The notes beneath the pieces were generated by a model that saw only the letters and a list, made by a program, of their open reading frames with translations, searched no databases and was not told the origin of the DNA. This document shows positions 23,072-56,765 of a stretch of DNA of 64,000 bases, piece by piece (the first letter of the stretch is position 1; each line of letters begins with the position of its first letter). Both the position numbers and the translations under genes were made by a program. Source of the DNA: Patescibacteria group bacterium (GTDB lineage Bacteria; Patescibacteriota; Patescibacteriia; UBA10025; JAHIVO01); contig JAZDEZ010000008.1 in the NCBI GenBank assembly GCA_043808365.1, forward strand, positions 919 to 64,918. The letters are read 5' to 3'.

Positions 23072-23079
23072 AGGAGTCG

Positions 23080-23173
23080 GTAATTAGTAATCTGTAACTT
23101 GTAATAATTGTTACTGATTACAGGTTACCTGCTTAAATCACTAATTACTATTTACGAATTACTAATTACTTAC
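23080..23173. repeat. Heptamer array: 4 GTAANNN units followed by inverted TTAC units (hairpin-forming)
   Basis: GTAA starts at 23080, 23087, 23094 and 23101. TTAC ends at 23114, 23121 and 23128, then at 23148, 23155, 23162 and 23169. Confidence 0.75.
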
Positions 23174-23195
23174 ATTGTACCCGAAACTCCACAAA

Positions 23196-25160: not shown

Positions 25161-25327
25161 GTGTGCTTTTGTTTAGGTAACCGCTAATCCTATTCTCACG
25201 AATTCCACTAATCCCTGATTTCCATTGCTGTTAATATGGTCGCGCACCCACAGAGAGGTGCGCTCGGGAGGATGTAACTAACCTACTAGTAGCTAACCGA
25301 CTAATTACTAACCTACTATCTTACTAT

Positions 25328-31326: not shown

Positions 31327-31440
31327 GTCAACCCCGTTAGAAAATGTACAATTATTGTTAATACAATTAAGGGAAGTTAATATCAATTAATGTCCTTCTA
31401 TCAGGAAATGATTTTTTATACATTTTCTAACGGGGTTGAC
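31327..31440. mobile_element. MITE-like element with 22-bp perfect terminal inverted repeats
   Basis: GTCAACCCCGTTAGAAAATGTA at 31327-31348 has its exact reverse complement at 31419-31440. The interior GGGAAGTTAATATCAATTAATGTCCT resembles the IS inner repeat GGGAAGTTAAAATGTCCT. The termini share GTCAAC...AAAATGT with the IS right end. Confidence 0.6.
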
Positions 31441-32698: not shown

Positions 32699-32785
32699 CC
32701 TTGTTCAATGTATAATTGATAATTTCTAATGCATAATTTGTTACTTTGATTATACATTTTGCCTTATAAATTCCCTCCTAATATC

Positions 32786-32835
32786 TAACAACTAATTACT
32801 AATTACCAACTACTAATTACTGATTACTAACTTAC
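32786..32835. repeat. Heptamer array (NNNTTAC), spacer between the giant gene and pilM
   Basis: TAATTAC TAATTAC CAACTAC TAATTAC TGATTAC, with (T/C)TAC ends at 32799, 32806, 32813, 32820 and 32827. It overlaps the stop codon of the giant gene. Confidence 0.7.
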
Positions 32836-35800
32836 GGCGTAACGCGGTGGTAGATCGGCAGGGCTGTGATAAAGTCAGACAGTCCGGGAGGCGTATTAGC
32901 CACCACTCTCCCATCATACAGTATCCGTTCAGACGGAGCAAGATTCTTCGTGTACTTGCGGTCGAAATTATATCCGGTGCCGGCCACGAACAGTCCGGAA
33001 ACAGAGAGCGGAATCTGGTAATCGATTGACAATGAAGTGGCGGTTTTTTGGATACATCGGTTTTCGCCTGGGCCAACCACGCCTTCTACAGAATCGCTCC
33101 CGCGGCGCAAGCGCAGGTCAAATTCCGAATGCGAAGCTACGCCTGGCAGATAATCCGACCGGCTGATAAATGCGGTGATTATGCCGGAAATATCATTTAA
33201 TGCAACCTGGCCGCTGCCTAAGGCATTAACAGCCACGTCTTGGGCCAACTCACTGACATCAAGAGATATGGGAAAGGCATATGGATTGCTATCGATAACT
33301 GACGGGTAATTTTGCAATACGCCTTGGCGAATCTGGAATGCGGCTGTGCCAGCGTTACACATCGTGGTATGCACCTGGGCTTTTAAGATCTCGGCATTAG
33401 CCGGGACGTTCACCGGAAATTGCAGATACGCGCGCTGTGGCTTAGTGCCATTCCAACCGAACGTCATGTCATTTAAGGCGGTTTCCATTGTTGTATCCGT
33501 AACAATCGAACCATTAGCCGCATTAGATGTAGAACGTCGTGGCGCGTATTCAATAACAAGTTGTGGCGCAGAACCCGATTCAAACGTCCTGAATCCGCGC
33601 AAATCTCCGACTTCCGCGTCACCCTCCCTGATAGACAAGCCGATGTAATTGACCTGGGTATAATTGTCCCTGTTTACAAACCGCTGTACGATAGCTTTCA
33701 GGTCAGGGGTCTGGTACCAGGTTCCCGCCGTCCAATTGCCCTCAATCGGGAAATTCACGCTGTTCGACGTATTGGCATTATACAAAGTACTGTTTGGTGT
33801 AGTGATAAAATCTATCGAAGCATCTGTCGCATTATCGTAATCAAGCAAATAAACGCGGGCATTGAAATCTCCGTTACTCGAACCGTCGCTCTGCAGTTTC
33901 AAGTAAGCGCTCTTTATTTCCGCGCCCGCCGGGATACTCGCGAGGGCAAATCGGAGATAATCCCGACTGACGACATTGCCGGCGTCCTTGCCAAACTTCG
34001 CGCTGGCCGCAACCGGCGCATTAACGTACGAACCAGACACTACTTCAGTATCATCATTCCCCGCTGAAACGGATAAACTGCTCGGCGCTTTCCGCCCGGT
34101 ACTGATAATACCCTCAGTCAGCGTGGCGGTCGCGGGATTATCTATGGCCGCGACGACGGCCGACACCTGGCCGGCCAATGAATTGATATAGATATTCCCC
34201 CTGACAATGATGGCCGCAGACGGCAATTCGATTAGATTACTTATTAACGGATCATCACATGTATTGCCAGTGCCGCAATCCCCGTTCTGGTGACAGACTT
34301 GATTATTATTGTTACTGCAACGCTTGTCATAATACACATTGGCATTAATTTCCAGGTTGCCGTCCACCACGATGACGCCATTGCCTTTTGTAGCGGGTAT
34401 TGCGGACGCAGAGCCTTTCATGAAATACATGTCACTGCCAATCGTAAAGGTTTGGCCCGGGGTCCCATGGAAATAATACACCTTATTATTTAATATCGGA
34501 TTGCCAAGGCTGGCACTCAATTCAGTGTCAGTGCTTTCCACCACGACAGTGCCATGACGATTCTTATCCCCGTTTGTTTTATTGACCAGCCCGTCCACGT
34601 CCAGCTTGGCCAGCAGTTCGGCGCCGAGCGTCTGGATGGACGGCTGGTTCTGGATCAGCGGAGAGAAGCCGGGCTGGGTAGGCAGCTGCGACGTCGGCAA
34701 ACCGGTGGTCGTGCCGCCATAGTATCCGGGGATGCCGCTGATAGCATCGCCTGACTCAATGATATACGTGGAAGTGTAATCGCCAGTGCCCCGCGGCGGC
34801 GGCGCCAAAGCAATGCCCTGGCTGGCATGGATGTCGGCAAACATCGTCTGCACCCACGGTATCCCGAGCAAGGCGCCGGCCGGCATGAACTCCACCCAGC
34901 CCAGGCCGGATTGGGCCACGCCGGGCATCCATTTGGAATACTCCACGTCAGACGCGGCGCAGTAGTACACATTCGCTCCCAATTCACCCTTCCAATAATT
35001 GAACATGCATGAGGGATATTTTGAATCCACGCAATTCGAATGCTGGGGCGTCACCAGTACGCCGCTGTCCTTGTAGCGCTTCTCGATGCGCCAGGTAGTC
35101 GGACCAAAATTATGACTGCCGACGGCATACATATAAGTGTTGTCGACAACAATTCCATCGATTCGCCCATCAACCGCACCATGCCCGTTATTGCCATCTT
35201 CAAAAATTATTCCATTCTGCCAGCCACCACTGGTCATATCATCAGGCTGACGAACACCATTGTGGTTAAGTCGTTCGTAGCGCCATCGAGAATTACCGAG
35301 ACTATAACCTACCCACCCGGCAAAATATATAAAATTATCATCAGCCGCGATAGTAAAGGCCTTTTTCGATCTACTGTCAGGAAAATCAACAATTTGAATA
35401 AACCCGTTACCGTTAACGTCACCGTCAAATGTATCAACCGGCTGGCCAGTAACGCGATCATACTTGGCCACCAGGAAATCTTCATTATTTGATAAATCCT
35501 TAGTATTACCAACCACATATAAATAATTTCCATGCAAAATTGCCTGAAAGGCCCTTTCGCTCTCATACGACCCTGAACCATCAATAATGCCATCGGTATC
35601 AAAACCAGACACCAGCGAACCGTTGCTTAACCGGCGTTTCTCAATACGCCACCTGCCGCCAGCATTACCGCCGACTAGATACATGAATTCCGCGTCAATG
35701 GTAATCCACTGCGCGGTATATCCGCCGTTTGAATTAACCACGCCGCCGGCGCCAAAGCTGGTGACCAGCGAGCCGTCGTCACTATAGCGCTTTTCAATAT

Positions 35801-38800
35801 GCCAACTATTATCATTATTGCTCCCAAAAACATATAAATAACTCAAGTCAACAGCCAGACTAACGTTTTTGTTGTTTGTGCCAGATTCTCCACCCGTATT
35901 TTCTATAAGGATGTTGCCGCCACCGCCAAAATTAGCGTCATAAGCGCCGGTCGCGGTCAAACGCTTCTGGATATATATATTACTGCCATTATTGCCTATG
36001 GTAAAGCCGCCAACATAGAGATAGTCGCCACTCGGGTCCAGGGCTATGTCAGTGGCCGTATCGCTTACGTTGTTATAGGTATAGCGCACTACTCCGTCTT
36101 CAGTATAAGTGGTAGCGGAAGAGTCATATCTATAGCCGAATCCGGTACCGCACGCGCTGTCGGTACAGAGCTCTCCGCTGTCTGCCCGGCGCTTCTCAAT
36201 GCGCCAGTTGGGATACCAGATGGATTCAATTTCTGTTTCGTCTTTGCCAACAATGTATAAGTACTGACCCGACTCATCCAGCACGGTTTCTGTTGCGACT
36301 GCCCGCGTTGGTTTATCTACCACGCCCCCGTTCCCGAAGCTGCAGCCGGTGTTGTTAAAATTTATTTCTCCCCAAACCACGTGCGGATTGCCCCACCGGT
36401 CAAAGCCGAAGACCGGGCTCCAGGACTTGACCGCCGAGGTCTGGGACACGTTGAAGTCATCAGTCGACGGCGCCCGTGTTTCGTCTCCCGTGTTCACTGG
36501 TGTTGATTTATTGGCAGTTACCCAGTTGGCACCGTTCCAAGCGGAATAATATATATCAGTAGCAGTATTGCCGCCCAATGGACTATAATCCCAGACCAGG
36601 TGCGGCCGGTCATCTTCATCAATAAATAAATCATGGGTCAAATGAACCTCCCGCGGCGCGATTACTAAATCAGGATCATCCACATCTTCAGAATTATTTA
36701 CTGAAATCCAGGCACTGCCGTTCCACTGGCGAAACATCAAGGTCGTGGGATCGCGCCACGCAATGCCAGGCCGGCCATCGCCGAAAAAGGCGACCTTGGG
36801 CACTTGCCCAAGAAAATCATCCGGTGCATTTCCAATGCCAATACCTTCGCAACCGGCGCAGTCGCTGGTGCTTCGACACGCCGTGCCGTTCGGAGTGCCG
36901 TCGCACGTTAAAACTCCCCAGTTCACCGAAGTATCTTTGCTGATGCACCTATTTTGTCCGCAAATAAACGGAGTACACTGACTATCTAAGATACATGATT
37001 TTGACGAATCATCAGTACATGACTGTTCGCAATCACCGTCATTAGCACAGCTAGTAGTAAAATTATTTGAACATACATTTGTTCCGGCTTTACCGCTGGC
37101 CGAAACCCAGGCAATGCCGTCCCACCAGCGGTAAAAAATATGTCCGGGACTCTCCATCCAGGTGATATGTGGAATCCCCTCGTCGCTCACCGCTACATCA
37201 ACCGAATACGCTGAACCAGCCGGCGTATTGCTGACATTCAGGTTATTCCCGTCGCCGGTGACAGTTTGCCACGTCGCGCCGTTATCCGCGCTTTTTTTAT
37301 AATAAATTTCCGAGCCATAATAATTTCCAAACCGGTAAGCCACATGCAGTCCGCCGCTGGGATCGCGCTTAAGAACGGGAATTTGGGCTACACCACCCTC
37401 CACTGGTACGGCGCTGGTCCAGCCGCTATTTTCCCAGCGGGAAAAATAAAGGCCATTACCGCCTTCCCAGCCCGCGCCGCCCTCCTGCCAGACCACGTAG
37501 GGATTGTCATTAGCGTCCAAAACCAGGGAAGGAAAACGGGAATCCCGGTCTGTTGTGCGGCTGACATTTAATCCGGTGGCGATGGGATCTATCGCTCCGG
37601 GCCGGTATTCCACGCCGCTGGCCGTCAGCCATTTGCCGGCTTTTAACTTTAGATAATAAATTTCATAATTGTTATCCGCCCGCTCGTAGTTCGACCAAAC
37701 AACATGCGGATCGCCGATTGAATCGATCACCATGTCCTTTTCCGCGCCCCGCCCCCAATCTTCATGCCCCGCGGCGCCGCTGATGGAAATATTAACCGGA
37801 TTAAGCCACAATGAATTACCGCTATAATCCGAGGCGGCCGCGCCCCACCCCCAGCCGAACACGCTGTACAGCTTCAAATCATTCGGGTTCACGTCCGGAT
37901 CGCCGAAAAACTGCTGTGAATCCACCTCCGTGCCGGTCAATCCGTACGGGCCGGTATTCCCCTGGCCGTCATCATAAGTGCCATTCAGCTTGAGCCAGCC
38001 CCAATCGGTAAATCCGAGGGCGGCACCCGAATCTTTCTGCGATAATAGCCTGGCCCAGCCCTCGATACCACGCGTCGTGCCGCTGAAATTGGCGGTGGTG
38101 TAGGCGCGGCATTCCTCGACGCCCAAATCTACGTCTTGGTCAGGACACGTATCACCCGGCGGATTTTTGCATGTTTCAAATATACAAGTGGCTGACGTCG
38201 GCTCATTGCACCGCGACAGATCTCCATTGACACAAAAGCTAGTCGATTTGTCAGAGCACCGGCCGTACTTTACATCAGAAGTATCTGAGCCGGTATAGCA
38301 AAAACCGTATAATGGGTCGCTATTTGGCGGTATATTTGTACTTATAACATCGCAATAATTCCCAGTTCCGCAATCAGCGTCAGTAGCACAGCCTTTCTGC
38401 ATGTTGTTTGTGCAGGTCTTGGCATTGAAGCTTATCCAGCCCAGGCCGGTTTTTTTCAGCTGATTCTTTAGACATTCATCGCCTACTCCAGTCGTGCACT
38501 CAGAATTTTCCGCGCAGTATTGGCTAGGGTTGTTCTTGCAGACATCGACTAAAGCGTGACTGGAAGCGCTCCAGGCGTATCCCTCCATCGGGTTGATGTC
38601 GCGCGACGGCTCGAACCAGGTGTTCACGCCCCAGTCGCCGGCGTAATTACAGCTGTAATCCGACTGGTTATAGCGGTTCAGGCAGTTCAATGAAATCCAG
38701 CCGACCTGGGATGACCAGGCCCAGCCGACCAAGTTATTCTTCACTAAAAATAACGTCGCTGGCGAGCCGAAAGCCGTTTCGCGGCACCGGCCGTCCGCTT

Positions 38801-41800
38801 TTTCCACACCGCCAGAACACTGGTCGGTGCCAGAAGAATTATCCGTACTGCTCCCGGTCCGCGCCTTAAATTTAAAGTCATATTTTCCGGCCGTGACCAG
38901 GTCAACAGTCTTACCGGCGGCGTCGCCCCAGGTAACTCGGTTATACCAATATTTATTGCCATCCCCTTCCGGCGGCGGCCCCCCTTTGCTGGCTGAATTG
39001 CAAATCTCAATGCCGTTTGCAGGCACTCCATTTATCTTATCAGCAGTCCAAACGCCGCCGTTGGCAGGATCAATACAAACATCTTCTGTATCATACTTTG
39101 GCAAACTGCAGTTATGGTCAATTGAGCCAGTCACAGGATTGGCATAATGCCACCACAGCGGTGAGCCGGTTGGGCTGTATTTGGTGACACAGAGCGCGTA
39201 TTCTGTATCAGCGGCTGGCGGAATTCCCTGGGGATTACTTGGGTCTTCAGGCCTAATGATAATATTAATTGAGGTTTCGCTGATCTGCCGGACCAGCTTA
39301 GGTGCGATTGGAGTGGCGGCGTATGTGTAGTGGCATTGCGGGGTAGGCGGCAACCAACTAGTCGCATCCCCATCCCCGTTCTTGGTCTGGCCTTGATAGC
39401 AATATTTCGTATTTGGCGTAAGGGGGGAATGGGTTATGGAATTGGTTGTCGACCGTGCGGAATTCCACCCGGTGCCATTCTCCCGGAACCACAGCCCGGC
39501 CAAGCCCGAAGTCGGATTACCCAATAAATTAGTAAACGCGTTACTGGTAATGGTCAGTTGCTGTGTCTGCACATTCTGAAAGCTGATCGAAGATACGTTT
39601 TCATTTGAGGTATAGGCGTAGGCAGTTGCCGGCTGGCCCCATCTCGCGGTCGCGTCGCCCGCGCGAACCGTGGCTGAATATTGAGTATTGACGCCTAAAC
39701 CAGTATGAAGGTAATTCCTTATCGTGTCAGCCAAATAGCACGTGGGGGGCAGAAACGGAGTGGGCGAATAACAAGTACTGCCATTGTTAGAAGTTTTTAC
39801 TTCATATCCGTTAGTCGCATTGACAGGTGCGCCCCCGACTGGCGCGTTCCACAACCAGCTAAGTTGCGCAACCGTCTGGTCAGCATGATTAGGAACCGGG
39901 AATGTTACCGCGCAGGGGGGTAAAGTCATACTGCTGCCTGCGATACTTGGCCGCCAGCTGCCGGGATTTTCCAAGCCATCAGGATTAAATGCGCGCAGGT
40001 GGTAGGAATATGTCGTATGATCGGGGTCGCAGGTCAATAATTTGTCCTCCACTAAATAATCATTAGTGTAACTCTGCGCCGGCACGGGCGAAACAGTCGT
40101 CCAGTCGCAACCAGTGGTGCCATTGCATTTGCGCTGCCACTCATAAGTTACATTGGTCGGGTTAAATAATGTGTTCAAATTAAACTGGCAATAATAAGAA
40201 TTGACACCGCTGTAATTGCACGATAACGACTCGAGAGACGGATTATTCGGTCTGGTATAGACCATAGCGCAGGCGCCTGACTTCATGTAGCAGGTCCAGC
40301 TGGTCGGAGTGATATCGACGAAATTCCTGGCCTGCACCCTGACGTAATAGCCAGTGCTAGGTAATAAAATACTACCGATGCCCGTATATCTGCAGTATTC
40401 AGTGGATGAGCCGATGTTATAGCAGGGCAGGCTGGCGCTGCCAGCCACTATCCAGCCGGACTGATGGGCAAAAGCGGTAAAACCACTGTTAGTGCTAACC
40501 TGGATTTGGTAATTTGTGCCAGCGGGATTAAGTCTTGTCGTGGTGTTATTATTCTGCCATTCCACATAAAAAGTCCGGTTAGTTATATTAGCGGCCGGTA
40601 TAGATACTGTCCCGGGCGGCGCGGCCAGCGTGTACGCCCGGCTGCCGCTGCAGGCGCCGCCGTAGCAGGTCCAATTTGTATATATGTTATTGCTGTTTTT
40701 CGCCCGGACGCGGATATAATAGCCGGTATTGATTGCTAAACTCTGGGCGCCGGTATATTCGCAGGTGCCGCTAGGGCCCTGGCTGCAGATCAGCGGGCCG
40801 CTCGTACCGGAGGCCAATTCGGCACTGATGATCGGACTTGAAAAATCACTATTAATAGAAACGGTAATGCCGTACGTAGTGGGATTAGGATTTGACTGCG
40901 GATTTTTATTGTCCCACTGGATATGAAAACCAGCGGTGCCAGCAGCTACATTCACGCTTTTATCGTTAACGCTGACAGTACCCGGCTGGCCGGCCATGGT
41001 GCAAACTAAGCCAGTCGCCGCTGACCAGCCGTCGTCTGGGCTGGGACAGGGCGGAATATTTTCAGGGCAACCCTCGCCATAAACTCCATTGCCGTTTTTT
41101 GTCCGGGCGCGCAATGTATAGCAGGTGTTCGGCGATAAATTGATGATAGTATTGCCGGTTAGCCCCCCCCAATTGGGAGTAGTGCCCGCGCTGTAACCGT
41201 ACCACGCTTCGCCTGCCTGAAAGCTTCCGGTGCTCAGGTTATAGTATTGGCTATTGGCCGTGTTCTGCAGGGCGTACGGAGTAGCGGGATGATTAACATG
41301 AGTAGGACTTTTAGCATAACCGGCGTTATCCATTGTTACATACAGTTTTGTGGCGTCAGTCAGATTTGGCGTTACAATCGGTGTTTTCGAGTTCCGGGCG
41401 CGCGTGCAAATTATAGAAGTCGCCGACGGCGCGACCACGTAATTATCGTTCGTATCACCTTCATCGTCGCCGTTCTGGCTGTAAAGGCCGGCGTCAAAGC
41501 AAAGATTCGGAGACAGAGTCACCGCCTGTGGAAGCAAACCTATAATCGGCCAGGCCGTCGCCAAGGCGCTATCCCATTCTGCCTTGGTCATGCAAGCTGG
41601 GGTATCGCTGCCAATGTCTGATACTTGCCTGACCGGCGCCAGAGCAGGTCCTCGAAACACGGCGCCTTCGGGGCCAACTGCTTTATCGGATGAATAAAAA
41701 TAACCCGGCAAACCCGCGACAGCAAACCACTCGCCCGAAGAAAACCTGGAATAAAAACCCAGGCAATATTCGGTAGTAGCGGATGGATTGCTGGCCGGGA

Positions 41801-44291
41801 CAGTGACTGTCCCTCCGGCATTATACTGAATATTGTAATAATGTAGGGAAGACAGCGCTGGCGGCGCGCTCGTGACTGGCGCGGCCAGGGTGTAGCGGTA
41901 GGCCGGCGTACTGGCGCGATAACTGGCGTCGGAAAAACTGCAACCGATATGCGTCTGACATTGGAGGTTGTCCAGCGTGCCGTCGGACATTTTCAGCTTC
42001 ACGACTTTATTGGCATTCACGGCTTCATCGGTGACGACATACAGGTAGCCGATTCCATCCGCACCCGGCTCCAGGGTAACTCCCACGCCGGTATGAAAAT
42101 CCGCTGCACTGCCCAGATATACGCCATTGGTGCCAAACGCGGTGCCGCATTGGGCGGCCGTGCATAATGCTCCAGTGTCAAGGCGGCGCTTTTCCACCCG
42201 CAGGTGGCCGGTTCCGTCGTCACCGACTAAGTAAAAGTACAAGCCGTCCACCGCCATAGCGTAGGGCGTTCCAGACCCTCCGTCGTACAAAGTATATGAA
42301 GACGCACCATTCGTTAAAAGCCTACCAACCGTCCACACGTTTGGATTCGCATGTGTCGCCGCCGTTTTACCAGCCCAATAAATATTACTACTACTGTCAA
42401 GCTTGAGATCAGCAAAATTACTCATATTAGGGTAGGTATTGGAAAATATTGATGTTCCGTTTGCTGTTCTGTCCTTTTTAATTAACATATTATTAGTATC
42501 GCTCCTGACATATCCGGAATATAAATAAGTATTGTCAACTTCAATGGCGTGATTGGTTATAAAAATTAAGCTGCCGAAGAATGAAGATAAATATCCGTCG
42601 CCGTCAAATGCGGTATCAAAAAGACCGTTATCCTGCCTGACCTTCCAGATTATCCTATAGGAACTGTTATTGAAATTGTCATAGCAATAACCCACGGTGT
42701 ATATATTCGTGGCATCCATCGCCAAATCCGTAATTACTCCACCTTTATTAGAACCGCTACAAACAGCCGGGTCGTGAGTCTTATAGCCGTCGCTGTCAAA
42801 AGTAATATCATATTCTCCAGTCGTGGCCGAGCGCTTCTCCAACCTGTAACCTCCGTCTCCTCCATAATAAACCCTGTCGCCGCTGACGCCGGCCGTATAG
42901 CCGGTCATTCCCCACGCGACATATCCGGGCGTGCCGGCACTCGAGCCAAAAGTGGTGTCATAAGCGCCATTTGCGGCCGAGCGCTTCTCCCTATACCACC
43001 CCGTGGGATAAATGTAATTCGCGCCGTAAATAATATCGCGCATACCCTCGTGCGTAGCATCGCTGATAGTATTCAGCCAGCCGTCGCCGTCAAAACTGAG
43101 CCACTGCACGGTGACAATGCGGTAATAATGCTTGGTATTGATGCCTTGATTTTGATGCATAATCTGGCAGGTGCCGCCAGTACCTCCTTTGGAAATTCCT
43201 GTACACTGTTTAAGAATGTTAATGTCCGTTGCGCACATCTCCCAGGTATCATTATCTCCTGTGAGCAAAAAGCATGTGTCAGTCCAACTACCAGTACCAG
43301 TAGTGGAAGTCTGTACCAGCCAGCCGTCCTCGGCAGTGGTCTGGTCGCTGAACTGTAAATATAGTGCCTGCTGGATACCTTCCGGGGGGTTCGGAGTAAC
43401 ATTAGGCGCGATGATGGTGAAATTAGTAGGCTCCGGCAAGTCGATCGTGGGATCAATAACTACAGGATATTTTGCCTGATCCAGCCAGGCTTGCCCCGCT
43501 TTACTGATGACCTTGCTGATTATGTAATCGTCGCCGTCCCGGGTTATCTCGTACCCCAAGCCGTAATTAACCTTGTTTTCGTCATCCTGCTCGTACATGT
43601 GCGGCCTGGGCATGCGCCAGGTTATCCGCTTGGTTTTCTGGTCGTGGAAGGTGATTGAGCCGTCTGCCTGCTCTTTGTAATATACCCCTTCCAGCTTCAT
43701 CTGTTGGCTGAATTTTGCTTGTCCGGTTTTTTTATTCAAAATAATTTTCTCGGCCAAAGCGTCATTAGTGACAGTGTAATCCACGTCCACTCCGTCGTAC
43801 ACGCCGGCGTAAGAAACCGTACTGCCTTTGGCGCTGCTTTTCTTTGACGCTGAATCAATGAAGGACAGGGCAATGCCGCGACCGCCGGCCACCTCGAATT
43901 TGACCGCCCCTTCTTGGCCGGCTTCTGATTTGAAATGCGTTTTATGCACGTTGGCGGTGTTTTCGTATTTAAAATCGCCCGTTGAATTGACCACGGTCGT
44001 GTCGATCGGCTGGTACTTGCCCGCCGCGTCCTGGTACTCCGCGTAGGTATCGTGGTAATCGCCGGTGATGGCGCCGTCCGGCCGGACCTGCTCGTTGGTC
44101 AGGCTGCGGCCGGAAGTGAGCACGTCGATATCCGCTACCGTTTCCGGGTCTACCGGTCTCGCGGGCTGGGCTTGCGGTGTCCCGAACGGCTTAAGGCCTG
44201 TATGAATAACCAGCGTCAGCCCAGCGACCAGCACCGCGGCGGCGGCGAGGATGAAGCAGACTGTTAAGATGTATTTAGTGGATTTGGGCAT
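32832..44291 (-). CDS. Giant surface protein (about 3819 aa): beta-propeller arrays, BNR/Asp-box propeller, Cys-knot modules, C-terminal DNRLRE-like modules
   Basis: Uninterrupted 11.5-kb ORF. The likely start is ATG 44291 (MPKSTKYILTVCFILAAAAVLVAGLTLV, a signal anchor). Contains many W(R/H)IEKR..G.L...FG.DG blades, an Asp-box SADNGATW, blades of the type PH(V/I)VW ... W.GS.W, CxnCxxxDCxnC knots, and three L(R/Q)F....(I/V)PAGAEI..A.L modules. Confidence 0.9.
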   Translation of the reverse strand: MPKSTKYILTVCFILAAAAVLVAGLTLVIHTGLKPFGTPQAQPARPVDPETVADIDVLTSGRSLTNEQVRPDGAITGDYHDTYAEYQDAAGKYQPIDTTVVNSTGDFKYENTANVHKTHFKSEAGQEGAVKFEVAGGRGIALSFIDSASKKSSAKGSTVSYAGVYDGVDVDYTVTNDALAEKIILNKKTGQAKFSQQMKLEGVYYKEQADGSITFHDQKTKRITWRMPRPHMYEQDDENKVNYGLGYEITRDGDDYIISKVISKAGQAWLDQAKYPVVIDPTIDLPEPTNFTIIAPNVTPNPPEGIQQALYLQFSDQTTAEDGWLVQTSTTGTGSWTDTCFLLTGDNDTWEMCATDINILKQCTGISKGGTGGTCQIMHQNQGINTKHYYRIVTVQWLSFDGDGWLNTISDATHEGMRDIIYGANYIYPTGWYREKRSAANGAYDTTFGSSAGTPGYVAWGMTGYTAGVSGDRVYYGGDGGYRLEKRSATTGEYDITFDSDGYKTHDPAVCSGSNKGGVITDLAMDATNIYTVGYCYDNFNNSSYRIIWKVRQDNGLFDTAFDGDGYLSSFFGSLIFITNHAIEVDNTYLYSGYVRSDTNNMLIKKDRTANGTSIFSNTYPNMSNFADLKLDSSSNIYWAGKTAATHANPNVWTVGRLLTNGASSYTLYDGGSGTPYAMAVDGLYFYLVGDDGTGHLRVEKRRLDTGALCTAAQCGTAFGTNGVYLGSAADFHTGVGVTLEPGADGIGYLYVVTDEAVNANKVVKLKMSDGTLDNLQCQTHIGCSFSDASYRASTPAYRYTLAAPVTSAPPALSSLHYYNIQYNAGGTVTVPASNPSATTEYCLGFYSRFSSGEWFAVAGLPGYFYSSDKAVGPEGAVFRGPALAPVRQVSDIGSDTPACMTKAEWDSALATAWPIIGLLPQAVTLSPNLCFDAGLYSQNGDDEGDTNDNYVVAPSATSIICTRARNSKTPIVTPNLTDATKLYVTMDNAGYAKSPTHVNHPATPYALQNTANSQYYNLSTGSFQAGEAWYGYSAGTTPNWGGLTGNTIINLSPNTCYTLRARTKNGNGVYGEGCPENIPPCPSPDDGWSAATGLVCTMAGQPGTVSVNDKSVNVAAGTAGFHIQWDNKNPQSNPNPTTYGITVSINSDFSSPIISAELASGTSGPLICSQGPSGTCEYTGAQSLAINTGYYIRVRAKNSNNIYTNWTCYGGACSGSRAYTLAAPPGTVSIPAANITNRTFYVEWQNNNTTTRLNPAGTNYQIQVSTNSGFTAFAHQSGWIVAGSASLPCYNIGSSTEYCRYTGIGSILLPSTGYYVRVQARNFVDITPTSWTCYMKSGACAMVYTRPNNPSLESLSCNYSGVNSYYCQFNLNTLFNPTNVTYEWQRKCNGTTGCDWTTVSPVPAQSYTNDYLVEDKLLTCDPDHTTYSYHLRAFNPDGLENPGSWRPSIAGSSMTLPPCAVTFPVPNHADQTVAQLSWLWNAPVGGAPVNATNGYEVKTSNNGSTCYSPTPFLPPTCYLADTIRNYLHTGLGVNTQYSATVRAGDATARWGQPATAYAYTSNENVSSISFQNVQTQQLTITSNAFTNLLGNPTSGLAGLWFRENGTGWNSARSTTNSITHSPLTPNTKYCYQGQTKNGDGDATSWLPPTPQCHYTYAATPIAPKLVRQISETSINIIIRPEDPSNPQGIPPAADTEYALCVTKYSPTGSPLWWHYANPVTGSIDHNCSLPKYDTEDVCIDPANGGVWTADKINGVPANGIEICNSASKGGPPPEGDGNKYWYNRVTWGDAAGKTVDLVTAGKYDFKFKARTGSSTDNSSGTDQCSGGVEKADGRCRETAFGSPATLFLVKNNLVGWAWSSQVGWISLNCLNRYNQSDYSCNYAGDWGVNTWFEPSRDINPMEGYAWSASSHALVDVCKNNPSQYCAENSECTTGVGDECLKNQLKKTGLGWISFNAKTCTNNMQKGCATDADCGTGNYCDVISTNIPPNSDPLYGFCYTGSDTSDVKYGRCSDKSTSFCVNGDLSRCNEPTSATCIFETCKNPPGDTCPDQDVDLGVEECRAYTTANFSGTTRGIEGWARLLSQKDSGAALGFTDWGWLKLNGTYDDGQGNTGPYGLTGTEVDSQQFFGDPDVNPNDLKLYSVFGWGWGAAASDYSGNSLWLNPVNISISGAAGHEDWGRGAEKDMVIDSIGDPHVVWSNYERADNNYEIYYLKLKAGKWLTASGVEYRPGAIDPIATGLNVSRTTDRDSRFPSLVLDANDNPYVVWQEGGAGWEGGNGLYFSRWENSGWTSAVPVEGGVAQIPVLKRDPSGGLHVAYRFGNYYGSEIYYKKSADNGATWQTVTGDGNNLNVSNTPAGSAYSVDVAVSDEGIPHITWMESPGHIFYRWWDGIAWVSASGKAGTNVCSNNFTTSCANDGDCEQSCTDDSSKSCILDSQCTPFICGQNRCISKDTSVNWGVLTCDGTPNGTACRSTSDCAGCEGIGIGNAPDDFLGQVPKVAFFGDGRPGIAWRDPTTLMFRQWNGSAWISVNNSEDVDDPDLVIAPREVHLTHDLFIDEDDRPHLVWDYSPLGGNTATDIYYSAWNGANWVTANKSTPVNTGDETRAPSTDDFNVSQTSAVKSWSPVFGFDRWGNPHVVWGEINFNNTGCSFGNGGVVDKPTRAVATETVLDESGQYLYIVGKDETEIESIWYPNWRIEKRRADSGELCTDSACGTGFGYRYDSSATTYTEDGVVRYTYNNVSDTATDIALDPSGDYLYVGGFTIGNNGSNIYIQKRLTATGAYDANFGGGGNILIENTGGESGTNNKNVSLAVDLSYLYVFGSNNDNSWHIEKRYSDDGSLVTSFGAGGVVNSNGGYTAQWITIDAEFMYLVGGNAGGRWRIEKRRLSNGSLVSGFDTDGIIDGSGSYESERAFQAILHGNYLYVVGNTKDLSNNEDFLVAKYDRVTGQPVDTFDGDVNGNGFIQIVDFPDSRSKKAFTIAADDNFIYFAGWVGYSLGNSRWRYERLNHNGVRQPDDMTSGGWQNGIIFEDGNNGHGAVDGRIDGIVVDNTYMYAVGSHNFGPTTWRIEKRYKDSGVLVTPQHSNCVDSKYPSCMFNYWKGELGANVYYCAASDVEYSKWMPGVAQSGLGWVEFMPAGALLGIPWVQTMFADIHASQGIALAPPPRGTGDYTSTYIIESGDAISGIPGYYGGTTTGLPTSQLPTQPGFSPLIQNQPSIQTLGAELLAKLDVDGLVNKTNGDKNRHGTVVVESTDTELSASLGNPILNNKVYYFHGTPGQTFTIGSDMYFMKGSASAIPATKGNGVIVVDGNLEINANVYYDKRCSNNNNQVCHQNGDCGTGNTCDDPLISNLIELPSAAIIVRGNIYINSLAGQVSAVVAAIDNPATATLTEGIISTGRKAPSSLSVSAGNDDTEVVSGSYVNAPVAASAKFGKDAGNVVSRDYLRFALASIPAGAEIKSAYLKLQSDGSSNGDFNARVYLLDYDNATDASIDFITTPNSTLYNANTSNSVNFPIEGNWTAGTWYQTPDLKAIVQRFVNRDNYTQVNYIGLSIREGDAEVGDLRGFRTFESGSAPQLVIEYAPRRSTSNAANGSIVTDTTMETALNDMTFGWNGTKPQRAYLQFPVNVPANAEILKAQVHTTMCNAGTAAFQIRQGVLQNYPSVIDSNPYAFPISLDVSELAQDVAVNALGSGQVALNDISGIITAFISRSDYLPGVASHSEFDLRLRRGSDSVEGVVGPGENRCIQKTATSLSIDYQIPLSVSGLFVAGTGYNFDRKYTKNLAPSERILYDGRVVANTPPGLSDFITALPIYHRVTP

Positions 44292-44369
44292 AGGAAATTT
44301 AAAGGGAGGACAAGGGTAACATGGGATGCAAGGGGGAGCAGGGGACTTCAAGGGTAGATACTGGTGCTA
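44292..44369. repeat. Array of about 9-nt NNNCAAGGG units (left arm of four-helix-bundle cassette 1)
   Basis: TTTAAAGGG AGGACAAGGG TAACATGGG ATGCAAGGG GGAGCAGGG GACTTCAAGGG. It contains the IR half GGGGAGCAGGGGACTTCAAGGG (44333-44354). Confidence 0.75.
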
Positions 44370-44789
44370 TTAAGGCTTTTTAATTTTGCTGGCTCCGCTA
44401 TTAAAATTATTCATACGTTTTTTAGTTTCTAATGATTTTACTAACTTTGAGAATAAATAATCAGTTTTACCGCATAGGGCGTCTAATTTTCTAAATTCCA
44501 CCTCGGTAATCAATTGGTCTTCGAAGCAATCTTCTATATCACCCTGCAATTCGGAAAGTGACGGCTGGCAAATATTTTTCAGGGCGTTGATGTACTGGCC
44601 AAGGGTCTGGCGGTACCCTTCCTGAATATTCTGCTTTACCGAGCGGGCGGCGCTGTTCATCTGGCTGACACGCCTGATTTCAGATTTTGGAAAACGCCTC
44701 GACATTTCATAGACCGCGCTTCTTAACTGGCTGGCGTTCCGCCAAACAATTAGATCTTTATACCCCTGCTTGTATTTTTTATCCAACAT
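44370..44789 (-). CDS. Four-helix-bundle protein (23S rRNA intervening-sequence protein / Avd family)
   Basis: 139 aa. YKDLIVWRNASQLRSAVYEMSRRFPKSEIRRVSQMNSAARSVKQNIQEGY matches the F.DL.VWQ.A..L...IY.....FPK.E.. L..Q..RAA.S...NIAEG pattern of TIGR02436/PF05635. Confidence 0.8.
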   Translation of the reverse strand: MLDKKYKQGYKDLIVWRNASQLRSAVYEMSRRFPKSEIRRVSQMNSAARSVKQNIQEGYRQTLGQYINALKNICQPSLSELQGDIEDCFEDQLITEVEFRKLDALCGKTDYLFSKLVKSLETKKRMNNFNSGASKIKKP

Positions 44790-44805
44790 ATTTCAATCGT
44801 GTAAT

Positions 44806-44925
44806 TATCCCCCTTGAAACCCCTGATTTCCCTTGGACCCCCCTAATCTCCCTTGAAATTACCCTGAATCTCCCCTTGCCTTCCCTTGAAACCCCCTGCT
44901 CCCCTGTGGAACCCCTGAATCTTTA
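44806..44925. repeat. Array of about 10-nt CCCTTGA/CCCCTGA units (right arm of cassette 1, inverted relative to the left arm)
   Basis: AACCCCTGA TTTCCCTTGG ACCCCCCTAA TCTCCCTTGA AATTACCCTGA ATCTCCCCTTG CCTTCCCTTGA AACCCCCTGC... IR half CCCTTGAAACCCCCTGCTCCCC (44883-44904) matches 20/22 with the reverse complement of 44333-44354. Confidence 0.75.
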
Positions 44926-44930
44926 CGTGC

Positions 44931-47162
44931 TTACAACTCATTGCAAATTATTTCGGTAATCTGGGAATTGGCGTCGAGGGTAAGGCCCGTCATAAATTTG
45001 CCGCCGATGGTGGCGCAGTTGGCCACGCCGCTGGAAACCGGAACCACCTCGTCACTGCCGCCCCACTGGTTATTTTCCGCCTGAACGTCACTGCCAACGG
45101 TAAGATTATTTCCCACCATGCCCGCGCCTGACACGTTGACATGGCCGGGCTGGGGGGTAATGTTGCACGACCCATATATTTCACAATCACTGTTATTCTT
45201 ACAGACGCGGGTTGGCCGTCCGGAACAGAATCCCAGCCGGTCAAGATTCACAACCGTATTTAGATCCGTATGCCCCTGGCCCGAACCGGAATAAAATTTC
45301 TGCAGATTAAGTGGCCTGGTTTCGTCGCATCCAGTACTGTTGCAAGTGTTTAACGTCCATAAATATGTCCCGTCAAAAAGCAGTCTAGCGCCAGACCAGT
45401 CTGACCATAAACGAGTAGGATACCCCTTAATTTCACCATTAGCGGCAGTGATCCGATATACCGAATTACCGATACCAGGTTCTCCCAGCCCAGCCAGCCA
45501 GACATAAGTGCCATCAAAGGCCAGGTCTGACGCCTCAAGCTTTGAACTAAGCGCTAATGGCATAAATTGGCTGTCAGACACGCGGAATTTGGCCACTTTC
45601 CCTTCTGTCCCTATATAGCTGGAAATAACCCAGATATGGGCGCCGTCAAAGATCAGCCGCCCGGGCGCGGATAGTCCAGTCGCGTAGCGCCCTACAACGG
45701 CGCCGGTATCCGGATCGATTTTTATTAAATTTTCCGGATTTTGCTGGCAACCTGGGCCACTGACGCAAATTTGGATAGTCGCGGGTCGTGTCGCGCCCTG
45801 CGTGACATTGGGCAATAAAGTCCAGATATAGCCATCGGCAAAAATAATTCCCTCCGGCCTGACGCGCCAGCCGGCGCTGTTCAAACGGTTCAGGTCAACG
45901 CCAGCGCCGTTTGTTCCCACGGGATAAATGCCGACCCGATTGCAGTCAGAATCGATTTTTGTTATGTCGCCGCCATCAGGACTGACCGTCCAAATAAACA
46001 CCTTGCCATCATCATCCACGCTGGTGGCAATTTCACGGGGAATAACCCCAAAATTGACCGTACCGCAGTGCTCCGTCACTGATCCATCTTGGGGATCAAA
46101 CTTTGTCAATGTAGCGTCATAATTCGACAGCCACAAATACCGGCCGTCAAACGTGATATTAGTACCTTCTGTGTTGGGCAAATTATACGTACCTATTACC
46201 TCGCCGTCAGACGCCCGAATTTTCCACAACTCATTGCCATCGTCATCGCTAAATTTATTCATAACCCAAATATTTGAACCGTCGAATGCCATATCTGGAA
46301 ACAAAAAACTATTTGATCCGGCTGCCGCTGACGCCGGATATTCCCCTATTTTCTGCCCGGCCGCAAACGGCACTAATGATCTTTGCAATTGCGTCGGCAG
46401 AAATATGCCGGCCGCCACGTCCGCCCCGGCGCCGAAAAACCCTTTGAAATACCCGGCCAGGCCGCTGCCCGTATTCTGACCATAGACGGCCGCGTCGGTA
46501 AGCGCTCCTGTTTCGACATAGATGCCTTTACCGCCCGTGCTGACTCCCTTTAGGCCGTTCCCGTTTACACTCTGGCCGCTGACCGCCTGACTGCTGTTGC
46601 CGGTATAGAGGCCATAGACACCCGTTCCGCCCATTGAAGCCGCGGTCAGGCCGGCGCCTTTTGAGCTGTATCCGCTGACCGCCCGGCCATTGATCGGGGC
46701 CGCGCCACTGCCGATCCGCGCCATTCCACCCTCTACTATCAGCGCCGTGTCCGGCGTCTGGAATTTCGTACCGATGCCCACCCAGCCTTCGGTGGAATTC
46801 GCGTAGAGGACGTCGTCATCGACGGCCAGCACGTCGTTATAAACATATGGCGTGGAAAAAATGGCGCCATCACCTCGGACATCCAATGGCTTCAGGGGAG
46901 GATCCGCGGAGAACGAACTGGACTGCGTCAGGTCATACGTCGGTAAAATTTCAAGCGACCCGGCCTTAGCCTGGTTCTCGGGACCCGTCGTCAGCGGAGC
47001 GTCAAAAGTCTCCGTCGGCGGCGCTGATGACGGCTCCAACCACTCGGCTTGGGCCACGCGCGCCCCGCCCTGGGCAATTCCAACACACGCCAGAATCCCC
47101 AGGATGAAAAATGTCCCGAGGTTTTTCCTGAATATATTTTTTTTGATATTTAATCTCTTCAT
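44931..47162 (-). CDS. Secreted beta-propeller repeat protein, paralog 1 (743 aa)
   Basis: Signal peptide MKRLNIKKNIFRKNLGTFFILGILACVGIAQG, then AEWLEPSSAPP... The body carries FDG(T/S/R/A)(Y/N/H)(L/I/V)W blades. The C-terminus is C..G.F..G...(n)..ITEIICNEL. Confidence 0.85.
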   Translation of the reverse strand: MKRLNIKKNIFRKNLGTFFILGILACVGIAQGGARVAQAEWLEPSSAPPTETFDAPLTTGPENQAKAGSLEILPTYDLTQSSSFSADPPLKPLDVRGDGAIFSTPYVYNDVLAVDDDVLYANSTEGWVGIGTKFQTPDTALIVEGGMARIGSGAAPINGRAVSGYSSKGAGLTAASMGGTGVYGLYTGNSSQAVSGQSVNGNGLKGVSTGGKGIYVETGALTDAAVYGQNTGSGLAGYFKGFFGAGADVAAGIFLPTQLQRSLVPFAAGQKIGEYPASAAAGSNSFLFPDMAFDGSNIWVMNKFSDDDGNELWKIRASDGEVIGTYNLPNTEGTNITFDGRYLWLSNYDATLTKFDPQDGSVTEHCGTVNFGVIPREIATSVDDDGKVFIWTVSPDGGDITKIDSDCNRVGIYPVGTNGAGVDLNRLNSAGWRVRPEGIIFADGYIWTLLPNVTQGATRPATIQICVSGPGCQQNPENLIKIDPDTGAVVGRYATGLSAPGRLIFDGAHIWVISSYIGTEGKVAKFRVSDSQFMPLALSSKLEASDLAFDGTYVWLAGLGEPGIGNSVYRITAANGEIKGYPTRLWSDWSGARLLFDGTYLWTLNTCNSTGCDETRPLNLQKFYSGSGQGHTDLNTVVNLDRLGFCSGRPTRVCKNNSDCEIYGSCNITPQPGHVNVSGAGMVGNNLTVGSDVQAENNQWGGSDEVVPVSSGVANCATIGGKFMTGLTLDANSQITEIICNEL

Positions 47163-47173
47163 TTACTTTCCGC

Positions 47174-47271
47174 GGATTACTTGTTACCCGTTACTAATTA
47201 CGAATTACTATTTACTAATTACTTATTACCTTTTATCTATTATTTATTATCTATTACTTATTACCTTCTAC
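47174..47271. repeat. Heptamer array, 14 NNNTTAC units in unbroken register
   Basis: TTAC/TTAT/CTAC ends at 47180, 47187 ... 47271 (every 7 nt). It fills the spacer between the stop of the 1677-aa gene and the start of the 743-aa gene. Confidence 0.85.
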
Positions 47272-52320: not shown

Positions 52321-52453
52321 GGATTACTTATTACCCGTTACTGATTACTAATTACGAATTACTTATTATTTATTATTTATTACTTATTACCTATTATTTA
52401 TTACTTATTACATTGTTCATGGTTCTAAGTTCAAAGTTCATGGTTCATAGTTC
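52321..52453. repeat. Heptamer array, 19 units: 13 NNNTTA(C/T) then 6 NNNGTTC in the same register
   Basis: Units end at 52327, 52334 ... 52411 (TTAC/TTAT) and at 52418, 52425 ... 52453 (GTTC) with no phase break. Confidence 0.85.
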
Positions 52454-55667: not shown

Positions 55668-56231
55668 ATGTCACCAATTGTCTGGATCATCATCATCGCC
55701 ATCGGCGCCATCGTCCTATGGTTCATTGCGGTCTACAACGGCCTGATCCGCCTGCGCAACCAAACTAAGGAAGCCTGGGCTGACATCGACGTCCAGCTCA
55801 AGCGCCGCTACGACCTGATCCCGAACCTGGTCGAAACGGTCAAGGGCTATGCCAAGCACGAACGCGAACTTTTTGAAAAAGTAACCCTAGCCAGGACAGC
55901 GGCCATGGGCGCCACGGGCGTGGCTGCCAAGGGCCAGGCGGAAAATATGCTGGCCGGCACGCTGAAAAGCTTGTTTGCCGTGGCCGAAGCCTATCCTGAC
56001 CTGAAAGCCAACCAGAACTTCTTGAAGCTCCAGGACGAGCTGTCTGACACGGAAAACAAGATCCAGGCCGCCCGCCGGTTTTATAACGGCAACGTGCGCG
56101 ACTTCAACACGAAGATTCAGGTGTTCCCGAACAACATGATTGCCGGCACCCTCGGTTTCAAGGCCTTTGAATTCTTCGAGCTCGGCGCCGGTGAAGCGGC
56201 GGCTAAAGAGCCGGTGAAGGTGAGCTTCTAG
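55668..56231 (+). CDS. lemA: LemA family protein
   Basis: 187 aa. N-terminal TM, then YNGLIRLRNQTKEAWADIDVQLKRRYDLIPNLVETVKGYAKHE ... ARRFYN, the LemA signature. Confidence 0.9.
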   Translation: MSPIVWIIIIAIGAIVLWFIAVYNGLIRLRNQTKEAWADIDVQLKRRYDLIPNLVETVKGYAKHERELFEKVTLARTAAMGATGVAAKGQAENMLAGTLKSLFAVAEAYPDLKANQNFLKLQDELSDTENKIQAARRFYNGNVRDFNTKIQVFPNNMIAGTLGFKAFEFFELGAGEAAAKEPVKVSF

Positions 56232-56237
56232 TTAGAC

Positions 56238-56265
56238 TAAGAACTTTGAACCGAAAACACTGAAC
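56238..56265. repeat. NNNGAAC heptamers (left arm of four-helix-bundle cassette 2)
   Basis: TAAGAAC TTTGAAC CGAAAAC ACTGAAC (ends at 56244, 56251, 56258 and 56265), followed by the hairpin CTGAAC-tggaatatc-GTTCAG. Confidence 0.7.
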
Positions 56266-56296
56266 TGGAATATCGTTCAGATTATATTTGATACTT

Positions 56297-56653
56297 ATGT
56301 TATTCAGATTCAGACAATTTCCTGTTTACAAGGATTCCAGAAAATTCCGAAATGACATATACGCTTTAACGAAAAAATTTCCTAAAGAAGAGCTATTCAG
56401 TTTAACTTCGCAAATCAGACGCGCGACAAACTCCATCTTATTGAACATTGCTGAAGGATCAAACCGACTGTCCGATAATGACTTTGGACGCTTTTTAAAT
56501 ACAGCATTGACTTCACTTGAAGAAGCAGTCGCCTGTATGGATATTGCGCTCGATGAAAAATATATTAGCCTACAAGATCACGAAAAACACCTTGCATTAG
56601 CAGAAAACCTTGGCAAGCAATTACTCGGTTTCAGCAAAAAACTTCGAAAGTAA
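56297..56653 (+). CDS. Four-helix-bundle protein (23S rRNA intervening-sequence protein / Avd family)
   Basis: FPVYKDSRKFRNDIYALTKKFPKEELFSLTSQIRRATNSILLNIAEGSNR is a close match to the TIGR02436 pattern. The ATG at 56297 is preferred over the TTG at 56288. Confidence 0.85.
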   Translation: MLFRFRQFPVYKDSRKFRNDIYALTKKFPKEELFSLTSQIRRATNSILLNIAEGSNRLSDNDFGRFLNTALTSLEEAVACMDIALDEKYISLQDHEKHLALAENLGKQLLGFSKKLRK

Positions 56654-56663
56654 GCTAAATTTA

Positions 56664-56753
56664 TAGGTTCCAAGTTCCTAGACAAAGTTGATTGTTCAAG
56701 GTTCTAAGTTCCTAGTCCCAAGTTCATTGTTCCCAGTTCATAGTCCTGAGTTC
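56664..56753. repeat. 13 NNNGTTC heptamers (right arm of cassette 2, inverted relative to the left arm)
   Basis: TAGGTTC CAAGTTC CTAGAC AAAGTTG ATTGTTC AAGGTTC TAAGTTC CTAGTCC CAAGTTC ATTGTTC CCAGTTC ATAGTCC TGAGTTC. The track ORF 56688-57668 wrongly translates this array as an HtpX N-terminal extension. Confidence 0.8.
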
Positions 56754-56765
56754 AACGTAAATCCC

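Follow-up and report, generated by a model that had tools for sequence, protein, structure and literature searches.

Most intervening sequences (IVSs) of rRNA are hairpins that carry no open reading frame (ORF). The ORF-bearing IVSs in the 23S rRNA of Coxiella burnetii and Leptospira hold the gene for a PF05635 protein in the loop of an inverted-repeat stem; in Coxiella, this stem is cut by RNase III, and tandem GACAGAT heptamers in variable copy number lie directly 5' of the S23p start codon (PMC4990558). Where 23S rRNA IVSs and their conserved ORF come from, and what purpose they serve, has been an open question since about 1990, as has the meaning of the tandem heptamer arrays that abound in cyanobacteria, Xanthomonas, and giant sulfur bacteria. 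These intergenic arrays of 7-nt units, namely, the short tandemly repeated repetitive (STRR) sequences, TAACTGA (Beggiatoaceae, Cyanobacteria, and Bacteroidetes), and GGGAATC (Xanthomonas), lie mostly in sense orientation just 5' of start codons, and convergent pairs, of which the Xanthomonas repeats form 70–75, can fold into hairpins; the two reports that describe them tie the arrays to no gene cargo and mention neither S23 nor four-helix-bundle proteins (PMC4679880, PMC4692102). The same taxa are also rich in TIGR02436 genes. In this study, we analyzed two regions in a 64,000-nt stretch of DNA from a Patescibacteria group bacterium (GenBank assembly GCA_043808365.1, contig JAZDEZ010000008.1, positions 919 to 64,918; hereafter the window), in each of which a small gene of this four-helix-bundle family lies between two complementary tandem arrays, and compared them with related loci and contigs, which are designated by L-numbers. 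The best explanation that we can offer, with a probability of about 0.5, is that both regions (hereafter cassette 1 and cassette 2) are copies of a widespread hairpin cassette of the IVS type, carried within host transcripts, which would link the 23S IVSs, their ORF, and the heptamer arrays.

The anatomy of cassette 1, which lies on the minus strand, was taken from the ORF listing and a direct reading of positions 44100–45100. Its cargo is a 139-aa four-helix-bundle ORF of the PF05635/TIGR02436 family (44370–44789), and the spacer that it occupies runs from the stop of a 743-aa gene (44931) to the ATG of a 3819-aa giant gene (44291, the most plausible start). The original prediction, made from the letters of the window, had placed the ORF exactly in this spacer, and the two coordinates confirm it. 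The 5' arm (44790–44930) consists of approximately 11 degenerate units of ~10 nt with AGGG(G) as their sense-strand ending; it sets in 5–13 nt past the stop of the 743-aa gene and ends ~17 nt before the ATG of the ORF, with the run of AGGG(G) units extending from 44925 to 44806 in the sense direction. The 3' arm (44292–44369) is built of CCCT(T)-type units complementary to those of the 5' arm, which run from 44357 to 44298 on the sense strand and end ~8 nt before the giant-gene ATG. A 22-nt inverted repeat between the arms (44333–44354 versus 44883–44904), also noted earlier, was reread directly at 20/22, and a repeat search extended it to 38 nt at 79%.

Cassette 2 lies on the plus strand and has the same layout with a different repeat sequence, as had been proposed. 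Its 5' arm (56232–56296) begins at the stop codon of a LemA gene and consists of GAAC(T)-type 7-nt units; the cargo (56297–56653) encodes a 118-aa four-helix-bundle protein (PF05635, E = 3.8e-31); and the 3' arm (56654–56765) consists of 7-nt units of the (A)GTTC type, which are complementary to those of the 5' arm and end 8 nt before the ATG of an M48 peptidase gene (56766). The GC content of the cassette 1 ORF is 0.41 versus 0.52–0.54 in the adjoining genes, and that of the cassette 2 ORF is 0.37 versus 0.56–0.57, placing both ORFs 10–20 GC points below their neighbors.

Both cargo proteins belong to the Avd/23S-IVS-protein family, as the original prediction had suggested for the 139-aa ORF. 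In hidden Markov model searches, the cassette 1 protein matched PF05635 (E = 7.2e-16, 58.8 bits; curated cut-off, 33.8) and TIGR02436 (E = 3.3e-14, 53 bits; cut-off, 24), and the cassette 2 protein scored 107.9 and 103.6 bits, respectively, again above the curated cut-offs. An AlphaFold (AF2) monomer model of the 139-aa protein, built with 17 homologues, had a predicted local distance difference test score of 91.2. A Foldseek search with this model retrieved 2GSC (TM-score, 0.90–0.95; root-mean-square deviation, 0.9–1.5 Å), followed by 2RLD and the Avd structures 4DWL and 8UB7, and the model superposes on all of these folds. By sequence, the cassette 2 protein matched 2GSC at 1e-12 and the cassette 1 protein at 1.5e-4. 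Both proteins are basic, with pI values of 9.6 (cassette 1) and 9.5 (cassette 2). The ratio of nonsynonymous to synonymous divergence (dN/dS) of the cassette 1 protein was 0.09/1.54 against L175; for the cassette 2 protein, dN was 0.09 and dS was saturated against L176 (dN/dS < 0.05). With dN/dS of approximately 0.06 or lower against close relatives, the window proteins are under strong purifying selection and kept by it. The low ratios therefore indicate that the cassette proteins are functional, unlike the ORF of the Coxiella IVS, which is decaying and probably untranslated. An anti-phage defense-system reading was dropped because neither cassette protein matched a PADLOC defense-system model.

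The complementarity of the arms clearly exceeds chance. Local alignment of the 5' arm with the reverse complement of the 3' arm gave scores of 28 (cassette 1) and 29 (cassette 2), approximately 7 standard deviations above random window segments of the same size (13.8 ± 2.1). The arm–arm duplex energy corresponded to z = −4.2 for both cassettes, and none of 300 dinucleotide shuffles in which one arm was shuffled was as good. For the AT-rich cassette 2, duplex energy could not usefully be compared with random segments of the GC-rich window, and the composition-free alignment scores were used instead. Cassette 1 is outranked by just one other inverted repeat, that of an insertion sequence (IS)-like element, among those in the window with no more than 1.5 kb between their copies. 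In the predicted minimum free energy (MFE) structures of the full regions, the two arms pair with each other in both cassettes. Flanks that form a stem around the inserted sequence are a hallmark of IVSs, and the predicted stem would provide this enclosure.

To examine generality, the profile of the cassette 2 protein was scanned against one genome per species, which yielded 80 loci from Patescibacteria, Omnitrophota, Margulisiibacteriota, Desulfobacterota-type, and other metagenome-assembled genomes; shifted flanks within the same 80 loci served as controls. The real flanks had a mean complementarity score of 29.7, compared with 14.2 ± 2.5 for the controls, and 63 of the 80 loci exceeded the 99th percentile of the controls (22). 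Tandem periodicity was found in 46% of the real loci and in 3.7% of the controls. Arms matched their own partners (29.6) far better than non-cognate arms (16.2; p = 3e-35). Wherever both arms were clearly periodic, the period was equal, 7 or 8 nt; it is ~10 nt in the clade of the cassette 1 protein (p1) and 7–8 nt in the p2 clade. The flank units among the 80 loci include ACTGAGAA, GAACTNA, TGACAAT, GGGCTNA, and TGAACGA, each with its complement on the opposite side. Orthologous cassettes at the LemA–M48 site differ in their units (GGGCT, GAACT, GAACG, and TAGAA) and yet keep complementary arms, which indicates that both arms change together. Homologues of the cassette 1 protein come from Patescibacteria, and four contigs that carry them have N5-6AGGG-type units upstream and the complement downstream in three contexts, namely, the junction of a 7xx-aa gene and a giant gene (L004 and L008), a pilin operon (L001), and the position after topA (L006, with the variant units TAGCAAGG / CCTGCTA). 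Related cassettes are often found in type IV pilus-like operons, after PilB/GspE-like ATPase genes or, at L001, among prepilin peptidase and pseudopilin genes.

In a tblastn search of plasmids, nearly all members of the family were cyanobacterial, and the arms were again present. The arm of the Nostoc punctiforme cassette is (AGGAGTC)n; Picosynechococcus PCC 7003 has a cassette between cas10 and cmr3 with GAGGAGATAA / TCTCCTAA arms; Anabaena 90 has one with GGTGACA units between cas6 and cas4; and that of Nostoc edaphicum lies between nrdB and nrdA, bounded by (GGGAGTA)x8 and (TCCCTAC)x5. The layout is therefore no peculiarity of one contig, as it recurs in most of the homologous loci and in cultured cyanobacteria. 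At L046, L017, and L040, the downstream units are direct rather than inverted, with a long CAGAATAA array to either side of the gene at L046; these could be tandem cassettes, cassettes that have lost the 3' arm, or something else. Two of the cyanobacterial plasmid cassettes (L090 and L091) are inside cas operons (cas10–cmr3 and cas6–cas4). An association of 23S-IVS proteins ("23S rRNA IVP") with CRISPR adaptation modules has been described (PMC10910872), and cas-operon cassettes may contribute to it.

The cassettes are gained or lost as blocks. The cas10–cmr3 junction of PCC 7002 is 90% identical to that of PCC 7003 and lacks a 415-nt block, and the nrdB–nrdA junction of Calothrix NIES-4105 is 86% identical to that of Nostoc edaphicum and lacks a block of ~480 nt. 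In both cases, the absent block comprises array, ORF, and array, with breakpoints in or at the outer repeat units. This gain and loss as a unit suggests a mobile or at least indel-prone element. We also scanned metagenomes with the M48 peptidase that adjoins cassette 2 and obtained 59 assessable LemA–M48 junctions, of which 33 had no intervening gene, three had a four-helix-bundle gene, and 23 had something else. The closest M48 relative in the scan (L095) is occupied, and the second closest (L096, 70% identical) has no gene at the junction. The host gene of L095 is 73% identical to that of the window and its four-helix-bundle protein only 36%, which suggests that the junction was occupied independently. 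Fifteen of the 33 gene-free junctions are tight (5–24 nt), and several wider ones hold ORF-less hairpins of inverted arrays that fold with z values of −2.8 to −6.8, a parallel to the ORF-less hairpin versions known for the 23S IVS (PMC4990558). The original prediction of a possibly mobile cassette thus agrees with the presence or absence of whole blocks at cas10–cmr3, nrdB–nrdA, and LemA–M48, whereas cassette 1 itself is old at its site, as described below.

At least two of the 23 other LemA–M48 junctions carry a GxxExxY protein gene (TIGR04256, E = 2.6e-20) flanked by inverted TACGAAT / ATTCGTA arrays, and four further GxxExxY genes have like arms in other contexts; a search for GxxExxY genes on plasmids gave a single weak match. 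These array-flanked genes, from metagenome and MAG contigs (L099, L108, and L178–L181), belong to TIGR04256 / PF13366, with a PD-(D/E)XK fold, and are found at LemA–M48, between M48 and ligA, 5' of a T2SSE ATPase gene, and beside a four-helix-bundle gene (L179). Their units are mostly of the ACGAA(T/A) / (T/A)TTCGT type, L181 conforming only partly. The arrays are accordingly not specific to the four-helix-bundle protein: GxxExxY genes, ORF-less hairpins, and solo arrays also have them. Three LemA–M48 junctions (L144, L158, and L172) contain a conserved ~125-aa ORF (RVYYNKLVRDNI...) with no NCBIfam match; this ORF, which looks MazG-like, has no arrays and was not counted as a cassette.

The relation of the cassettes to their neighbors points to expression from the host transcript. 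The upstream neighbor is co-oriented in 61 of 68 assessable loci and the downstream neighbor in 58 of 64, and the median spacers to same-strand neighbors, from a cruder nearest-ORF pass, are 57 and 45 nt, approximately the size of an arm. The 5' arm is purine-rich in 77 of 86 loci, a strand-specific feature. No sigma70-like promoter or intrinsic terminator was detected in the arms, so the cassettes are probably expressed from the host transcript, like the 23S IVS, which has no promoter of its own. In five of the 80 loci (L026, L050, L052, L059, and L076), the cassette lies between co-oriented tRNA genes, with a tRNA gene ~50–80 nt upstream and another 40–250 nt downstream, which places these cassettes inside tRNA operons. 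None of the 20 loci scanned for a 23S rRNA location had one, and the window contains no rRNA, its only Rfam matches being tRNAs. The 23S IVSs are located in a stable-RNA precursor, in helix 25 or 45 of the 23S rRNA; by contrast, the window cassettes are between protein-coding genes. The proposal that such cassettes live in mRNA operons rather than in rRNA thus stands for the operon context, with the addition that tRNA clusters host them too.

We propose the following model for these results. A cassette would comprise a purine-rich tandem array of 7–10-nt units, a small basic S23p-family gene, and the reverse-complement array, and would sit between two co-transcribed host genes and be read from their transcript. 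In the transcript, the arrays would pair to form a long imperfect stem, whose base would lie within ~0–13 nt of the upstream stop and ~8 nt of the downstream start, making the inserted gene a loop. On the model of the 23S rRNA IVSs that bear an ORF, such a stem may neutralize the insertion in either of two ways: RNase III cleavage could free the cassette mRNA and separate the host cistrons, or the stem could merely hold the host flanks together. The cassettes are array-led like the Coxiella IVS, although their arms repeat far more often, reaching 12 units or more, and their hosts are mRNA operons or tRNA clusters instead of a 23S helix. RNase III demonstrably cleaves the IVS; for the cassette stems, such cleavage is a prediction by analogy. 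The intercistronic RNase III hairpins of the phage T7 early region and of lambda are similarly imperfect, lie between cistrons, and could likewise separate messages, but they are short unique sequences that enclose no gene.

Several observations weigh against this model. Folding of the whole regions was not significantly more stable than that of shuffled sequences (z = −1.4 and −0.2), a comparison that is uninformative because shuffling mixes both arms; arm-specific tests were therefore used instead. The predicted stem around the whole ORF is supported by the significant arm duplex and by the pairing of the arms in the MFE structures, and not by overall fold stability. Mismatches compatible with G:U pairs (121) and A·C mismatches (116) show no asymmetry in the arms, so an RNA stem is not distinguishable from a DNA-level inverted repeat, and duplex energies of the sense and antisense strands differed just marginally (p = 0.049). 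The longest uninterrupted arm helix has a median of 13 bp, with many transversion mismatches and with the variable unit positions unpaired, and such imperfect arms are a poorer substrate than a classical RNase III site. Approximately 10% of the cassettes are antisense to their neighbors, for example in an nrd operon. No transposase or recombinase was found in the cassettes, whose sole cargo is the four-helix-bundle protein; no insertion mechanism was identified, and the two alignable junctions showed no convincing target-site duplication. The cassette 1 junction is occupied in all four syntenic relatives (L004, L005, L008, and L175; no empty site was sought there), and the dS of ~1.5 between syntenic copies indicates that cassette 1 is old at its site and not a recent insertion. 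In addition, the solo arrays without a partner, described below, suggest that arrays may also serve a function unrelated to pairing. The IVS-like reading of the original prediction is supported in part, by the protein family, the complementary arms, the recurrence, the Coxiella-like layout, and the block gain and loss, while the mismatch counts give RNA no support over DNA.

The most serious rival, which we consider unlikely by itself and compatible with the hairpin-cassette explanation, is a DNA-level mobile element in which the arrays act as terminal inverted repeats or as hairpin or cruciform ends for insertion and excision by an enzyme supplied in cis or in trans, the RNA stem being incidental. 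Such an element would account for the whole-block boundaries at the outer array ends, the strand-symmetric mismatch spectrum, and the independent occupation of the LemA–M48 junction by different cassettes (L095, 73% host versus 36% four-helix-bundle protein), and it fits unit types that follow the cargo clade across contexts: p1 cassettes have N6AGGG units in three contexts, and ACGAA(T/A)-type units (TACGAAT and ACGAAA) occur in four of the five GxxExxY cassettes examined. One cargo family, moreover, has the PD-(D/E)XK nuclease fold. The four-helix bundle, by contrast, is not a known nuclease; transposase and recombinase genes and clear target-site duplications are missing; cassettes have been retained at one site over dS > 1.5; and 90% co-orientation together with the purine-rich 5' arm would be unexpected for a purely double-stranded-DNA function. 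Comparable elements are the repetitive extragenic palindromic sequences and bacterial interspersed mosaic elements (REP/BIME) with their REP-associated tyrosine transposase (RAYT), or miniature inverted-repeat transposable elements. In the REP–RAYT unit (REPtron), as in the cassettes, a small gene is flanked by inverted short repeats that are also dispersed between genes, solo or as hairpins; however, the cassettes do not have a Y1 transposase as cargo, tandem arrays of 7–10-nt units make up their arms in place of single palindromes, and the dispersed GTAATNA arrays of the window match neither cassette's arms. Integron gene cassettes are likewise small, promoter-less, co-oriented single-gene units with variable cargo, expressed from an upstream host promoter, and their attC sites are imperfect inverted repeats that fold as single strands, resembling the cassette arms. 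The attC site is on one side only and needs an integrase and an attI platform, whereas the arms of the hairpin cassettes flank the ORF and the cassettes are scattered singly in housekeeping operons.

A different role for the arrays, as binding sites of the encoded protein, appears improbable to us. An autoregulatory pentameric ring could bind RNA or DNA as the trp RNA-binding attenuation protein (TRAP) reads triplet repeats, with the inversion being secondary; the family does form basic pentamers that bind nucleic acid in the complex of the diversity-generating retroelement (DGR) (2GSC, 4DWL, and 8UB7), the window proteins have pI values in keeping with this (9.5–9.6), and both the period (~10 nt in p1 and 7–8 nt in p2) and the unit type follow the protein clade. 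Orthologous cassettes at one site, with proteins 60–75% identical, nevertheless differ in units, the unrelated GxxExxY fold shares the architecture, ORF-less hairpins and solo arrays occur, and binding would leave the complementarity of the two arms unexplained. It is very improbable that the gene merely happens to lie between two arrays of a kind common in these intergenic spacers. At least five further window arrays have no four-helix-bundle gene, and arrays of this kind 5' of start codons, similar to the cyanobacterial STRR, Beggiatoa TAACTGA, and Xanthomonas GGGAATC repeats, are described in other phyla (PMC4679880, PMC4692102), but the shifted controls at the 80 loci were almost never complementary or periodic, the arrays disappear along with the gene at empty sites, and the arms of both cassettes differ from the common GTAATNA arrays of the window. 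Indeed, cassette arrays depart from the published heptamer arrays in being complementary pairs around a specific small gene, with which they appear and disappear. As for a DGR in which the ORF would be the accessory protein Avd and would serve to diversify the adjoining giant surface protein, the cassette protein shares with Avd the fold of a basic, nucleic acid-binding pentamer family, and a giant Ig/fn3-like protein does adjoin cassette 1. Yet the cassette 2 protein scored 25.9 against a cut-off of 80 for the Avd equivalog NF033474 and 27.2 against 40 for bAvd, the cassette 1 protein had no match to the Avd or bAvd models at E ≤ 0.01, the YxDD motif of reverse transcriptases is absent from all ORFs of 200 aa or more in the 64-kb window, no template/variable repeat (TR/VR) pair or long direct repeat pair was found in the window, and like cassettes sit between LemA and M48 and among cas, nrd, and tRNA genes. 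A DGR is thereby effectively refuted in the window, and we give this explanation almost no weight.

Tandem heptamer arrays (PMC4679880, PMC4692102), 23S IVSs, Avd-like proteins, and the association of IVS proteins with CRISPR (PMC10910872) were already known separately. A search of the full-text literature, which did not extend to subscription literature or curators' family notes, found no prior description of array-bounded four-helix-bundle cassettes outside rRNA, and none was found in full text of an architecture common to four-helix-bundle and GxxExxY genes. There is a substantial chance that the cassettes represent a broader, unrecognized class beyond the IVS. In its widest form, which we advance tentatively and at somewhat less than even odds, this would be a large class of hairpin cassettes whose paired complementary arrays are empty or hold one of at least two unrelated genes (S23p or GxxExxY) and which colonize the spacers of any strongly transcribed unit; the 23S IVSs would be its rRNA-resident members, and the STRR, TAACTGA, and GGGAATC arrays would be arms, footprints, or landing pads. 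Its members would live in 23S rRNA helices and tRNA clusters as well as in pilus, cas, nrd, and housekeeping operons, across phyla that include Patescibacteria, Cyanobacteria, and Omnitrophota. An array, a small gene, and a complementary array between co-transcribed genes make a concrete, testable unit, and nature supplies pairs of occupied and empty sites in strains that can be cultured, such as Picosynechococcus PCC 7003 and PCC 7002, so that direct tests can address processing, mobility, the role of the protein, and what the cassette costs the host operon. The cassettes also matter for annotation, in which they split operons and cause fused gene calls (L179).

The host genes of the two cassettes differ in kind. 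The gene 5' of cassette 1 (44931–47162, minus strand) encodes the 743-aa protein, which has no Pfam family, and is preceded by a solo AAGTAAT array; the gene 3' of it (32832–44291, minus strand) encodes the 3819-aa protein, which has weak fn3, Ig-like, and BNR matches, and is followed by a pilM-like gene (31589–32698; PilM-like match, 4e-38). The earlier description of two giant surface-protein genes therefore needs amendment, as only the downstream gene is giant. Cassette 2 is flanked on the plus strand by the genes for LemA (55668–56231, 5e-62) and the M48 (HtpX-like) peptidase (56766–57668, 2.6e-32).

Elsewhere in the window, an ORF-less hairpin (23072–23175, minus strand) is composed of AGTAATT heptamers and their complement, with 31-nt arms at 81% and an MFE of −29.2 (z = −5.4). 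It occupies the 5' leader of a GT2 glycosyltransferase gene, with a terminator/promoter-like stretch on one side and the ATG on the other, and is a cargo-free version of a cassette-type structure. Solo arrays with neither a complementary partner nor an ORF were found in four spacers along one string of minus-strand genes. In the sense direction, (AAGTAAT) x12.7 at 47176–47264 lies between the stop of a 1677-aa gene and the ATG of the 743-aa gene, and (GAACNNN) x6 followed by (AAGTAAT) x12.7 at 52323–52453 lies between the stop of an 847-aa gene and the ATG of the 1677-aa gene; the core of the (GAACNNN) array equals that of the cassette 2 5' arm. The other two are (AGTAATT) x6 at 32785–32835, directly past the giant-gene stop, and a TAGTAGGTTAG-type array at 25274–25326. 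The 1677-aa and 743-aa genes are almost the same over the ~60 nt before them and in their first codons (MKRLNIK). The IS-like element (7543–8966) contains a 442-aa ORF (7632–8960) with N-terminal HTH_28/HTH_23 domains and is bounded by inverted repeats of 39 nt (85%), which are in turn duplicated in part. Finally, an inverted repeat of 25 nt that is almost perfect (96%) encloses a 64-nt loop 3' of the pilM-like gene (31327–31440).

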